Source of the DNA: an uncultured Lachnospiraceae bacterium
GTDB taxonomy: Bacteria > Bacillota > Clostridia > Lachnospirales > Lachnospiraceae
Direction: 5' to 3'
Assembly (NCBI GenBank): GCA_947565255.1
Contig: CANOFI010000001.1
Coordinates: 1 to 33,039, forward strand
Length of the DNA stretch: 33,039 nt
Part shown: piece after piece, positions 2,474-3,062 of the stretch
Layout of the letters: each line of letters opens with the position of its first letter
Position numbering within the stretch: position 1 is the first letter of the stretch
The notes under the pieces: model-generated
Databases searched by the model: none
Seen by the model: the letters and a program-made list of their open reading frames with translations, nothing else
What the model was told of the DNA's origin: nothing
Made by a program: the position numbers and the translations under genes

Positions 2474-2572
2474 TCATAAAAACAAAGTGTGCAAGCCCCA
2501 ATACTGAAAGCTTACACACCCTGCTGTCTCTACTATCGCTGTTCCTACGGTTCTTACAATTACTGCCAGCAT
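2474..2572 (-). CDS. Micropeptide B2 (32 aa) MLAVIVRTVGTAIVETAGCVSFQYWGLHTLFL; paralogue of B1 whose 3' half is encoded by the terminator hairpin
   Basis: An AGGAG ribosome-binding site precedes the ATG. The first 17 codons are near-identical to B1, including synonymous changes. The ORF is below the 60-aa track cut-off and was translated by hand. Confidence 0.45.
   Translation of the reverse strand: MLAVIVRTVGTAIVETAGCVSFQYWGLHTLFL
2477..2519 (-). terminator. Rho-independent terminator ending the micropeptide operon
   Basis: The minus strand reads GTGTGTAAGC-tttcagtattgg-GGCTTGCACAC followed by TTTGTTTTTA: a stem of about 10 bp including one G-U pair, then a T-rich tail. Confidence 0.6.
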
Positions 2573-2587
2573 ACCTCAACTCCTGTT

Positions 2588-2650
2588 TTACTTTTCTGTT
2601 AATATGGTTACCACTACTGCTCCTATGATTTTGATTACTGTTCCTAACAT
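2588..2650 (-). CDS. Micropeptide C2 (20 aa) MLGTVIKIIGAVVVTILTEK
   Basis: GGAGGTG lies 5 nt upstream of the ATG. It is 17/20 identical to C1, with frame, length and stop preserved. Confidence 0.6.
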   Translation of the reverse strand: MLGTVIKIIGAVVVTILTEK

Positions 2651-2661
2651 AATATCACCTC

Positions 2662-2727
2662 CTATTCCTTTTCTTCCACTGCGGCTGCTATTATGATTAC
2701 TGCTATTTTCAATATTGTTCCTAACAT
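2662..2727 (-). CDS. Micropeptide A2 (21 aa) MLGTILKIAVIIIAAAVEEKE
   Basis: A GGGAGGTGG ribosome-binding site precedes the ATG. It is a paralogue of A1 with three synonymous and several conservative substitutions. Confidence 0.6.
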   Translation of the reverse strand: MLGTILKIAVIIIAAAVEEKE

Positions 2728-2744
2728 ACTTTCCACCTCCCGCT

Positions 2745-2807
2745 TTACTTTTCTGTTAATATGGTTATCACTACTGTTCCTATGATTTTGATTACTTTTC
2801 CTAACAT
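2745..2807 (-). CDS. Micropeptide C1 (20 aa) MLGKVIKIIGTVVITILTEK
   Basis: A GGAGGTG ribosome-binding site precedes the ATG. The peptide is the tail of track ORF 2745..2936. Polar residues at positions 4, 7, 11, 15 and 18 would form one face of a helix. Confidence 0.6.
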   Translation of the reverse strand: MLGKVIKIIGTVVITILTEK

Positions 2808-2818
2808 GGTATCACCTC

Positions 2819-2908
2819 CTATTTTGTCTTCACTTTCTTTCCTTCTATAATGATAATCGCTGTCTCTACTATCGCTGTTCCTACAGTTCTTACAATTTTC
2901 ACTAACAT
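2819..2908 (-). CDS. Micropeptide B1 (29 aa) MLVKIVRTVGTAIVETAIIIIEGKKVKTK
   Basis: A GGAGG ribosome-binding site precedes the ATG. The peptide has a hydrophobic core and a Lys-rich tail. Its paralogue B2 conserves the first 17 codons. Confidence 0.6.
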   Translation of the reverse strand: MLVKIVRTVGTAIVETAIIIIEGKKVKTK

Positions 2909-2919
2909 GATATCGCCTC

Positions 2920-2985
2920 CTATTCCTTTTCTTCAACTGCGGCTGTTATAATGATTACTGCTATCTTCACTAATGTCTCTAACAT
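2920..2985 (-). CDS. Micropeptide A1 (21 aa) MLETLVKIAVIIITAAVEEKE
   Basis: An AAAGGAGGTGG ribosome-binding site precedes the ATG. This is the first gene after the consensus promoter. It has a hydrophobic core and an acidic tail. Confidence 0.6.
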   Translation of the reverse strand: MLETLVKIAVIIITAAVEEKE

Positions 2986-3033
2986 AGTTCCACCTCCTTT
3001 CAGATGCTTCTGTATTTCCCTCTTGCAACAACA

Positions 3034-3062
3034 ATTATAGTACACAATATATGAACATGCAA
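3034..3062 (-). promoter_or_regulatory. Near-consensus sigma-70 promoter (TTGCAT-17 nt-TATAAT) driving the micropeptide operon
   Basis: On the minus strand TTGCAT is at 3057-3062 and TATAAT at 3034-3039, with exactly 17 nt between them. This is about 45 nt upstream of the A1 start. Confidence 0.6.

Follow-up and report, generated by a model that had tools for sequence, protein, structure and literature searches.

Results

The DNA analysed here, hereafter the window, is a stretch of 33,039 nucleotides from an uncultured Lachnospiraceae bacterium, and its first part is occupied by a type III-D CRISPR-Cas locus (Table 1). Six mini-ORFs of 20–32 codons (2985..2474) are located on the minus strand, which is also the cas strand, between the effector genes and csx1. 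All six are present with exactly the sequences given in an earlier note on this DNA. The immediate surroundings of this cassette are a divergent gene of the WYL1 family, csx1 and a RAMP-family gene. The cassette and the WYL1-like gene together form a module of ~2.1 kb between the last effector gene and csx1, with a GC content (38.8%) that is lower than that of its surroundings.

Table 1. Features of the micropeptide cassette and its type III-D locus (positions refer to the window).
Feature	Coordinates	Strand	Remarks
CRISPR leader (282..56) and first repeat (55..19)	19..282	−	array runs off the window start
csx1 (CARF-HEPN)	283..2292	−	TIGR02221, DxTHG motif; adjoins the cassette on its downstream side
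Intrinsic terminator	2472..2525	−	hairpin 2525..2481, followed by the U-tract UUUGUUUUU
Peptide B2, MLAVIVRTVGTAIVETAGCVSFQYWGLHTLFL, 32 aa	2474..2572	−	truncated B copy; the terminator encodes its 3′ half
Peptide C2, MLGTVIKIIGAVVVTILTEK, 20 aa	2588..2650	−	ORF with ribosome-binding site
Peptide A2, MLGTILKIAVIIIAAAVEEKE, 21 aa	2662..2727	−	ORF with ribosome-binding site
Peptide C1, MLGKVIKIIGTVVITILTEK, 20 aa	2745..2807	−	ORF with ribosome-binding site
Peptide B1, MLVKIVRTVGTAIVETAIIIIEGKKVKTK, 29 aa	2819..2908	−	full-length B type; homologue of peptide P2 of locus L043
Peptide A1, MLETLVKIAVIIITAAVEEKE, 21 aa	2920..2985	−	ORF; ATG 7 nt after GGAGG
Cargo promoter	3034..3062	−	−35 TTGCAT (3062..3057), 17-nt spacer, −10 TATAAT (3039..3034)
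Box 2, GGAACAAAA	3082..3090	−	~20 nt upstream of the −35; near-invariant in the alignment
Box 1, TTGTTACTTTTATAGTAAC, putative operator	3128..3146	−	window version of the family palindrome TTGTTC-N9-GAACAA
WYL1-family gene, 339 aa, presumed regulator	3292..4311	+	divergent from the peptide operon
Type III-D effector operon	4401..12840	−	cas6, cas10, RAMP-family genes, csx19

Translation signals are found ahead of every ORF. GGAGG precedes the ATG by 7–8 nt in five of the six, and B2 has GGAG at 7 nt, which bears out the proposal that each mini-ORF carries its own Shine-Dalgarno sequence. The same arrangement, GGAG(G) at 7–8 nt before the ATG, is present in all nine peptides of two genomes (the six of the window and three of L043, described below). 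A degenerate pattern of ribosome-binding site plus peptide had five matches in the window, compared with 0.00 across 100 shuffles. The cassette sequence is the same in three assemblies (that of the window and two independent ones, ERZ14651334 and SRR13921780), and B2 is annotated as a gene in public assemblies. The six peptides form three paralogue pairs, and the differences within them had been described as synonymous or conservative. This fails for the C pair, which has no synonymous and three non-synonymous changes, K4T among them. The broader suggestion that the paralogues point to translation is supported by a pooled pN (~0.08) below pS (~0.21) over the three pairs and by homologues with the same ribosome-binding-site layout in a second genome. 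Judged by sequence, the six ORFs look like real micropeptide genes in one transcription unit within the type III-D locus.

The promoter at the head of this unit had been called near-consensus (TTGCAT-17-TATAAT). It is present, and an intergenic alignment places its −35 and −10 hexamers at the same positions in seven WYL1-like loci, but the −35 hexamer fits the consensus at only three of six positions, which is why a generic promoter scan missed it. The −35 hexamer is followed by a conserved GTTC. Box 1 and the half-site box, Box 2, are likewise kept along with both hexamers in the seven loci, whose regulators are only 39–54% identical, and in one of them, L052, the Box 1 arms and the Box 2 half-sites change together, to a GGGATA type. 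The window contains only two exact matches to Box 2, counting Box 2 itself. By this alignment and co-variation, the divergent promoter appears to carry a conserved candidate operator of the kind expected for a CapW- or BrxR-like regulator. The intrinsic terminator that had been placed at the cassette end was found as a strong hairpin (−24.3 kcal/mol, z = −4.9), with none of 200 shuffles folding equally well. It is located inside a gene, as the B2 ORF spans the entire hairpin and U-tract. An Rfam search of the cassette region matched no family.

The 339-aa neighbour of the cassette, previously noted as being of WYL type, can be narrowed down to the WYL1 family. Its family profile matches RspWYL1 (PDB 6OAW_A) over the full length with E = 8e-43, positions 12–341 aligning with chain residues 24–389, and the gene product also matches PADLOC WYL models (4.4e-09). 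The family architecture comprises a double ribbon-helix-helix domain, a WYL domain, and a C-terminal domain. On these profile matches the gene is a true WYL1 homologue. A total of 45 homologues of the protein were found. No association with Cas13d (type VI-D) was seen: the window is type III-D, and the other WYL1-like homologues adjoin type III-A genes, RT-Cas1-Cas2, arrays or defence genes. Neither tblastn of the protein against plasmids and phages nor a search of its profile against viral contigs returned a match.

We read the contexts of eight WYL1-like genes and compared the intergenic architecture over seven loci. The cargo at the same promoter position differs by locus and includes a cas operon, GTPases, unknown genes, and small hydrophobic proteins. 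It is a type III-A cas operon in L045 and a set of LeoA/LeoBC-like GTPases in L044. In both L046 and L052, an 84-aa Gly/Ala-rich hydrophobic protein is accompanied by a 25–29-aa peptide, and in L052 a CRISPR array comes after them; homology between the two 84-aa proteins was not demonstrable. L043, with a regulator of 53% identity, carries three homologous micropeptides of 25–26 aa, which share the ribosome-binding sites and are followed directly by a CRISPR leader and array. Peptide B1 and P2 of L043 align without gaps at a BLOSUM62 score of 44, which none of 20,000 shuffles reached, and their polar positions 4, 7, 11, 15, and 22 are kept despite a pS of 0.73. C2 also resembles P2 (p = 0.002). 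The L043 cassette contains an exact 137-bp repeat, and the A, B, and C pairs of the window are recent duplications.

A link between the peptides and csx1 as such, which the earlier note had favoured, did not hold. The three closest csx1 homologues (45–49% identity), found at six loci, lie directly beside effector genes or cas6, and neither the cassette nor the WYL gene is present at any of the six, which rules out the cassette as a conserved csx1 partner. As far as locus comparison can tell, the conserved partner of the cassette is the divergent WYL1-like gene with its promoter and operator. What recurs next to the cassette module is a CRISPR array, cas genes or defence genes.

The peptides are rare. 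The window peptides had no match in Pfam, NCBIfam or PDB at E ≤ 10, nor in PADLOC or PHROGs. The six concatenated found nothing in the protein database, and blastn of the cassette against plasmids and phages found nothing either. A six-peptide profile searched against 1.84 billion representative proteins had B2 itself as its sole match. The degenerate DNA pattern of ribosome-binding site plus peptide had no matches in viral contigs (IMG/VR), one match in the genome contigs of 185,579 species genomes (in Massilia, taken as chance), and 33 in JGI metagenome contigs; none of the 33 was in a tandem array, and most fell at the N-terminus of a longer membrane protein or signal-peptide protein. Within these genome, metagenome, viral, and protein collections, scanned with strict DNA patterns and for short ORFs that are seldom called as genes, the homologous family is known from two lineages only, which counts against the reading that we prefer below. 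Literature searches covering WYL1, membrane effectors of type III systems, and small proteins turned up no comparable micropeptide module, nor did the family libraries searched, in agreement with the earlier note, to which no type III accessory module of such peptides was known.

At 20–32 aa and a mean hydrophobicity of 0.20–0.51 (0.35–0.51 in five of the six, and 0.20 in B1 with its Lys-rich tail), the peptides are small and hydrophobic in the manner of type I toxins. The corresponding values for the reference sequences of TisB and PSM-α4 are 0.47 and 0.54. The earlier description of the peptides as amphipathic calls for qualification. Polar and Thr residues gather on one helical face in A1, A2, C1, C2, and B1 (permutation p = 0.001–0.04), and in C1 the polar positions 4, 7, 11, 15, and 18 share one face, as had been read from the sequence (p = 0.001). 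However, the Eisenberg hydrophobic moments (0.20–0.33) are not above those of shuffled sequences (p = 0.12–0.40), whereas the PSM reference sequences lie at z = 1.9–2.8, with delta-toxin also above shuffles. The type A peptides are net anionic, with a charge of −1 to −2. The best reading of these values is that the peptides are probably helices with a narrow polar stripe rather than PSM-like amphipaths; this modest helical amphipathicity and the anionic charge of type A count against our main reading.

Discussion

Our best explanation, which we hold tentatively and at a little under an even chance, is that the peptides of the cassette are membrane-active toxins or effectors whose expression is inducible and controlled by the WYL1-like protein. 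Of its elements, we infer DNA binding and repression, the existence of an inducing ligand, activity on membranes, and any part in immunity. The peptide unit would be the cargo of a two-part module consisting of a WYL1-family gene and a divergent promoter with family-specific putative operator boxes. A WYL1-like dimer on Box 1 and Box 2 would hold the strong promoter shut until an infection-borne nucleic-acid ligand on the WYL domain lifted repression; this ligand might be RNA or DNA in single-stranded form, perhaps produced as fragments by Csx1 or Cas10. The six strong ribosome-binding sites would then give a burst of 20–29-aa peptides, each of them a predicted hydrophobic helix that is striped with Lys/Arg-7 and Thr/Asp/Glu and ends in a charged tail. 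These peptides may enter the membrane of their own cell and oligomerise, and thereby dissipate the membrane potential. The cell would become dormant or the infection would be aborted, which would add a second layer to Csx1, and read-through of the terminator could raise csx1 expression too. The fact that a terminator stands between the cassette and csx1 counts against this explanation.

WYL-domain proteins are known as regulators of defence operons: CapW controls CBASS (PMC9122588), and so does BrxR its own defence operon (PMC9122601). The window resembles CapW, BrxR, and RspWYL1 in having a WYL protein beside and divergent from what would be a defence operon, and a palindromic operator, putative here, at the promoter. 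CapW and BrxR are wHTH proteins in charge of large enzymatic systems, whereas the presumed regulator of the window is of the double ribbon-helix-helix type and its cargo consists of micropeptides. RspWYL1 also differs in context, belonging to type VI-D, where it has been described as a single-stranded RNA-binding enhancer of Cas13d and not as a transcription factor (PMC5935466; PMC6547453). It is reported to prefer single-stranded RNA and to bind double-stranded DNA poorly (PMC6547453), which is the reason for our reserve over a repressor role for the WYL1 family.

The closest physical counterparts of the peptides are type I toxins (TisB, Ibs, Fst, and the C. difficile modules by CRISPR arrays; PMC5961336), hydrophobic peptides of 19–35 aa that have either a narrow stripe of polar or charged residues or a tail that is charged. 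Proximity to CRISPR arrays is shared as well, and by analogy the window peptides would act from inside on the membrane of the cell that makes them. The cassette is unlike these toxins in being multi-copy, in its optimal ribosome-binding sites, and in being paired with a protein regulator. Membrane depolarisation as a backup or abortive arm, which we propose here, has parallels in Cam1 (PMC10808066), Csx23 (PMC11014256), and Csx28 (10.1101/2021.11.02.466367), but these are proteins activated post-translationally by a cyclic oligoadenylate sensor (CARF in Cam1) or by Cas13b. A CARF-like sensor domain fused to transmembrane helices is absent from the window peptides, which have 20–32 aa and no domain match; they are too small for a sensor domain, and control would therefore have to be transcriptional.

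The cassette could instead encode a secreted leaderless cytolysin, bacteriocin or signalling peptide that serves competition or interaction with the host or between cells, its position in a CRISPR locus being merely where the WYL1-like module landed. We consider this unlikely. The organisation does recall the staphylococcal psm-alpha operon (PSM-α1–4), and to that extent the earlier analogy stands: both have tandem genes of about 20 codons (20–22 in psm-alpha), each with its own Shine-Dalgarno sequence, on one transcript, and both encode hydrophobic helices (predicted in the window) that have no signal peptide. Duplications such as the three pairs of the window and the 137-bp repeat of L043 would fit selection for dosage or diversification, and the low GC of the insert also agrees with this alternative. 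The likeness does not extend to sequence, as Pfam, the bacteriocin models, and the PSM entries in PDB were unmatched, and an ungapped comparison with PSM-α4 or PSM-α1 was no better than shuffles; PSM homology was rejected. A short GT(I/V)IKII motif common to the window peptides and PSM-α4 is a resemblance only. The setting is different too: psm-alpha is an Agr-controlled virulence locus, whereas this cassette adjoins a WYL1-like gene in a CRISPR locus, with no Agr-type control genes or Pmt-type exporter adjacent to it within the window and no exporter, immunity or processing genes beside it in either the window or L043. The anionic charge of the type A peptides and the unremarkable hydrophobic moments set the cassette apart from PSMs, and the same charge, along with the missing transporter and immunity genes, sets it apart from class IId leaderless bacteriocins. 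The recurrent CRISPR, cas, and defence neighbours also speak against a secreted product.

An addiction or guard module is improbable in our judgement. Such a module would resemble type I toxin-antitoxin systems or CreTA: an antisense RNA, a crRNA-like RNA or the Cas complex would keep the toxic peptides silent, and loss or inhibition of the CRISPR locus would be lethal. There are precedents in the small hydrophobic toxins beside CRISPR arrays in C. difficile (PMC5961336) and in CreTA, whose toxins occur within cas loci and are silent until immunity is disturbed, as is proposed here (PMC8501985; PMC9458426); most CreT toxins, unlike the peptides, are RNAs, and Cascade represses them with a degenerate mini-CRISPR as its guide. 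A plus-strand promoter-like site (TTGTCT-16-TATAAT) does lie antisense inside B1, but the L043 cassette has none; a conserved antisense promoter was rejected on this ground, and the type I arrangement that had been brought up earlier is not supported. No Rfam family was found either. HMMs of Fst, Ibs, and other toxins did not match the window peptides, and one strong promoter serving six ORFs with optimal ribosome-binding sites is unlike type I toxins. The L043 cassette adjoins a 3-repeat mini-array with a degenerate last repeat, which would suit a guard module, but no ectopic, degenerate or CreA-like repeat was found near the window cassette at up to 15 mismatches, and the spacers of the L043 mini-array and the partial first spacer of the window are not complementary to the cassette beyond chance. 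A CreA-like guide was rejected accordingly. There is a slim chance that the peptides are themselves functionless and that translation of the mini-ORFs, especially B2, acts in cis to set how far transcription reads on beyond the cassette, into csx1 in the case of the window and, for L043 and L052, into the CRISPR leader and array. B2 covering the terminator and the constant position of the cassette upstream of csx1 or an array, in the same direction, are what such a leader would have, but six ORFs are far above the needs of an attenuator, no terminator like that of the window was found after the L043 cassette, and peptide sequence, length, and polar stripe are kept between genomes in which the DNA has diverged. 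That the ORFs are non-functional, arising by chance or decaying in a repetitive AT-rich spacer region, we regard as very improbable. The rarity of the family, the visible truncation of B2, and the purely non-synonymous changes in the C pair agree with decay, but the GGAG(G)-ATG arrangement in nine of nine ORFs, the conserved promoter, and the homology of the peptides between loci with regulators of no more than 53% identity argue against it.

The explanation by inducible membrane-active peptides under WYL1-like control has a wider form, in which WYL1-family proteins, so far known only for binding single-stranded RNA and boosting Cas13d (an in vitro effect), would act as transcription factors with sequence specificity and gate variable cargo operons in CRISPR and defence loci, including micropeptides as a transcriptionally triggered abortive-infection arm of type III systems. 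This wider form is possible, although we are more inclined to doubt it than to accept it. If it were true, membrane-permeabilising micropeptides of 20–30 aa would be the smallest CRISPR-associated effectors so far. The conserved and co-varying putative operator provides a testable prediction, namely that WYL1 recognises DNA of a specific sequence. ORFs below 50–100 codons are usually skipped when CRISPR accessory genes and defence islands are surveyed, as a survey of small proteins points out (10.1101/494179). The sequence of the micropeptide cassette points to an undescribed class of small, putatively membrane-acting CRISPR accessory genes. If the peptides are effectors, an entire class of ancillary genes would have been missed so far, and RNA-targeting CRISPR systems would be backed by transcriptionally induced toxins, beyond the enzymes activated by cyclic oligoadenylate.

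The peptide cassette and its surroundings

Six mini-ORFs, which fall into three paralogue pairs (A, B and C), lie on the minus strand at 2985..2474, with sequences exactly as an earlier note had listed them. GGAGG is found 7-8 nt 5′ of the ATG in five of the six, while B2 has GGAG-7-ATG, and a degenerate pattern of ribosome-binding site plus peptide gave five matches in the window and none in 100 shuffles. Two further assemblies (ENA ERZ14651334 and Logan SRR13921780) contain base-for-base identical ORFs, so the cassette is not an assembly artefact. A search of the region against Rfam returned no family match.

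Features of the cassette, its operator and the surrounding CRISPR locus
Feature	Position	Strand	Remarks
First CRISPR repeat, GTAGAAATGAAGTAAGCCCGATGTAGGGCATTGACAC	55..19	minus	leader 56-282; downstream of csx1; array continues past window start
csx1 (CARF-HEPN)	283..2292	minus	TIGR02221; DxTHG motif
Terminator hairpin, then U-tract	2525..2481	minus	-24.3 kcal/mol, z = -4.9
B2 ORF	2572..2474	minus	ATG start, GGAG RBS
C2 ORF	2650..2588	minus	ATG start, GGAGG-type RBS
A2 ORF	2727..2662	minus	ATG start, GGAGG-type RBS
C1 ORF	2807..2745	minus	ATG start, GGAGG-type RBS
B1 ORF	2908..2819	minus	ATG start, GGAGG-type RBS
A1 ORF	2985..2920	minus	ATG start, GGAGG-type RBS
Cargo promoter	-35 TTGCAT 3062..3057; -10 TATAAT 3039..3034	minus	17-nt spacer; read from sequence
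Box 2, GGAACAAAA	3090..3082	minus	near-invariant in intergenic alignment
Box 1, the window's form of the family palindrome TTGTTC-N9-GAACAA	3146..3128	minus	conserved in intergenic alignment
WYL1-like gene (339 aa)	3292..4311	plus	between last RAMP-family gene and cassette; no Pfam match
Type III-D effector operon (cas6, cas10, RAMP-family genes, csx19)	4401..12840	minus	

The TTGCAT-17-TATAAT promoter described earlier is present; its -35 hexamer matches the consensus at only three of six positions, which explains its absence from a generic promoter scan. The intrinsic terminator also described is a strong hairpin and U-tract 3′ of the cassette that overlaps B2. As the hairpin lies inside this ORF, B2 is a B copy in truncated form, with terminator sequence coding for its C-terminal half. 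The ORF (2474-2572) spans the entire hairpin and U-tract (2472-2525, minus), and its stop codon comes immediately 3′ of the U-tract, so that its translation could unfold the terminator and affect how much transcription continues into csx1. The terminator end is also overlapped by a promoter-like site that has an extended -10 (TGCACA-17-TATGAT, 2493..2465, minus). Inside B1, an antisense promoter-like site (TTGTCT-16-TATAAT, 2824-2851, plus; 10/12 matches) is directed at the WYL1-like gene; the related cassette of another genome (L043) lacks an equivalent.

Elsewhere in the window, a TetR-family gene (13258-13845, plus) is divergent from the cas operon and has as neighbours stand-alone AMP-binding and condensation-domain (NRPS-like) genes, together with an alpha/beta hydrolase gene (13936-17163, minus). 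A larC-like nickel-insertion gene, part of a Lar/Cbi cluster (19564-25221), contains a tandem repeat of 66 bp (20614-20753; 2.1 copies, 91% matching).

Association with a WYL1-like gene

The cassette had been proposed to be linked to csx1, but comparison of loci shows that it is not a conserved companion of that gene. The closest csx1 homologues share only 45-49% identity. Where they are encoded (L037-L042), csx1 directly adjoins cas6 or the last RAMP-family gene, and neither the cassette nor any WYL gene is present. In one of them, L038, the RAMP-family stop overlaps the csx1 start, and csx1 is followed by a leader and 13-repeat array homologous to the window's leader and first repeat. Relative to L038, the window has an inserted segment of about 2.1 kb, made up of the WYL1-like gene and the cassette, with a GC content of 38.8%, against 45.7% for the window. 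The cassette's real partner is the divergent WYL1-like gene.

A profile built from homologues of the 339-aa gene matches the RspWYL1 sequence (PDB 6OAW) over its full length (E = 8e-43). RspWYL1, an accessory protein of type VI-D Cas13d, is built of a pair of ribbon-helix-helix motifs, a WYL domain and, at the C terminus, a domain for dimerisation; it binds single-stranded RNA (PMC6547453; PMC5935466) and binds generic double-stranded DNA poorly (PMC6547453). We collected 45 homologues of the WYL1-like gene and compared eight distinct genomic contexts.

The regions between the WYL1-like gene and its divergent operon could be aligned across seven loci, whose regulators share only 39-54% identity with that of the window. 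Box 1, an A-rich spacer and Box 2 are kept, as is a promoter with a -35 of TTGnAn followed by GTTC, a 17-nt spacer and TATAAT. The promoter of the peptide operon is therefore the conserved cargo promoter of the WYL1-like family. An eighth lineage (L052, intergenic region 1081-1323) retains this layout, and the half-sites of both boxes have changed together, to TATCC-N9-GGATA and GGGATAAAT. Judged from these alignments, joint change of this kind marks a site where a protein recognises DNA, and it suggests that WYL1-family proteins bind DNA in a sequence-specific manner, a property not previously reported for the family, RspWYL1 included.

The window has just one further exact copy of GGAACAAAA (12858-12866, minus), which is found in the 5′ UTR of cas6, downstream of a good promoter (TTGATT-17-TATAAT, about 12921-12949, minus), and this lone half-site may be due to chance. 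A 103-aa ORF overlapping the cas6 promoter (12837-13148) is probably spurious.

Cargo and apparent movement of the module

The cargo located at the conserved promoter varies. In L045 (regulator 45% identical to that of the window) it precedes a type III-A cas6-cas10-csm operon, in L044 (49%) two GTPases matching the PADLOC LeoA/LeoBC models, and in L050 and L051 (41-42%) three unknown genes, with a defence-island-like setting in L050. The L046-L049 loci (43%) encode an 84-aa glycine-zipper-like protein followed by an amphipathic 25-aa peptide, MGVGGVLRIVKNVAKAIVAVIEIFE, strongly so in L046 (moment 0.50, z = 3.2; cargo 2194-2529). L052 (40%) has an 84-aa Ala/Gly-rich hydrophobic protein and a 29-aa acidic peptide (first cargo genes at 704-1080), with a co-directional CRISPR array next. 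Homology between the 84-aa proteins of L046 and L052 could not be demonstrated.

In L043 (53%) the cargo is three mini-ORFs, each with a GGAGGTGAGGAC-ATG start, which encode MGKIIVIILVQALVDAILKGDIKKTA once and MTGTVISILGHALVDAIVIIVKGGK twice, the latter as an exact 137-bp tandem duplicate. Peptide P2 of L043 aligns without gaps to B1 of the window with a BLOSUM62 score of 44, reached by none of 20000 shuffles, and also resembles C2 (p = 0.002); synonymous sites between P2 and B1 are near saturation (pS = 0.73). A 148-aa called gene on the opposite strand over this cassette (7132-7578) has no family match and is probably a miscall, and by tblastn the L043 WYL1-like gene starts at 7920, 27 codons upstream of its called start (8001).

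A CRISPR leader copy and three repeats lie directly downstream of the L043 cassette, and their repeat family is the one found after csx1 in L038, the type III-D locus of the same genome. An array trailer and RT-Cas1-Cas2 lie beyond the opposite end of the WYL1-like gene. The intact gene and three-peptide cassette thus sit between the trailer and a second leader/three-repeat copy (6711-6896, 9208-9320). Just past the L038 array, a 36-aa remnant of a WYL1-like C-terminus is found (9533-9640). Given these flanking copies and the remnant, the module appears to be mobile within CRISPR loci, with recombination between copies of the leader and array as the probable route. Each of the two genomes encodes the peptides upstream of a CRISPR component that is read in the same direction: csx1 in the window, and a leader with its array in L043.

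Properties of the peptides

Across the two genomes, the Shine-Dalgarno sequence is optimal in sequence and spacing for all nine peptide ORFs. Paralogue comparisons gave pN 0.08 versus pS 0.28 for the A pair, 0.08 versus 0.36 for the B pair (first 17 codons), and about 0.08 versus about 0.21 for the three pairs pooled, a pattern that, with few sites, is suggestive of translation. The claim that paralogue changes are synonymous or conservative is contradicted by the C pair (pN 0.07, pS 0.00).

Polar residues occur at positions 4, 7, 11, 15 and 18 or 22, as they do in P2 of L043, and group along a single side of an ideal helix (permutation p = 0.001-0.04 for A1, A2, C1, C2 and B1). The description of the peptides as amphipathic calls for qualification: their Eisenberg moment does not exceed that of shuffled sequences (p = 0.12-0.40), because Thr makes up most of the stripe, alongside a single Lys or Arg and a single Asp or Glu. 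Reference sequences of PSM-alpha, delta-toxin and TisB do have moments above shuffles, unlike the window peptides. A better description of the latter is that of short hydrophobic helices, each bearing a narrow polar stripe and, at the C terminus, a charged tail, closer in shape to TisB- or Fst-like inner-membrane toxins than to PSM detergent-like amphipaths.

None of the six peptides matched Pfam, NCBIfam, PADLOC, PHROGs or PDB chains even at E ≤ 10. No further members were found with the concatenated peptides among 5.8 billion proteins, by blastn of the cassette against plasmids and phages, or with degenerate DNA patterns in IMG/VR, one genome per species (185,579 species) and JGI metagenome contigs, and a peptide profile matched only B2 itself among 1.84 billion representative proteins. 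The family must thus be counted as very rare or, at the least, as unannotated, and conclusions drawn from it have a correspondingly limited reach. No micropeptide cassette serving as CRISPR or WYL cargo was described in the literature searched, which covered WYL1, WYL regulators, type III membrane effectors, microbiome small proteins and CreTA.

Proposed mechanism and alternatives

Building on the observed anatomy, homologies, conserved operator and promoter and genomic associations, we propose that the WYL1-like protein would repress the cargo promoter at Box 1 and Box 2 until a nucleic-acid ligand made during infection relieves repression. The six strong ribosome-binding sites would then give a burst of translation, and the peptides may insert and oligomerise in the producer's own membrane, leading to depolarisation and to dormancy or abortive infection. 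Read-through into csx1 is possible, and B2 translation across the terminator could even promote it.

It is unlikely that the peptides are instead secreted as bacteriocins, cytolysins or signals: no exporter or immunity genes are adjacent to the cassette, type A peptides are anionic, and the recurring neighbours are CRISPR or defence genes. Somewhat less likely still is a type I toxin-antitoxin or CreTA-like guard: the antisense promoter-like site in B1 is not conserved in L043, there is no ectopic CRISPR repeat near the window cassette, and neither the L043 spacers nor the window's first, partial spacer show complementarity to the cassette beyond chance. A cis-regulatory leader would be improbable for six ORFs with a conserved peptide pattern, and the ribosome-binding sites, promoter and cross-genome homology make non-functional ORFs the most doubtful reading.

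As cargo under WYL1-like control, the cassette would fall within known categories, either small membrane toxins or WYL-gated defence cargo. The known CRISPR-linked membrane effectors Cam1 (PMC10808066), Csx23 (PMC11014256) and Csx28 (10.1101/2021.11.02.466367) differ in being proteins whose activation is post-translational, by cyclic oligoadenylate or Cas13b. The peptides are trivially testable, and the conserved, co-varying operator yields the testable prediction that WYL1-family proteins are transcription factors.
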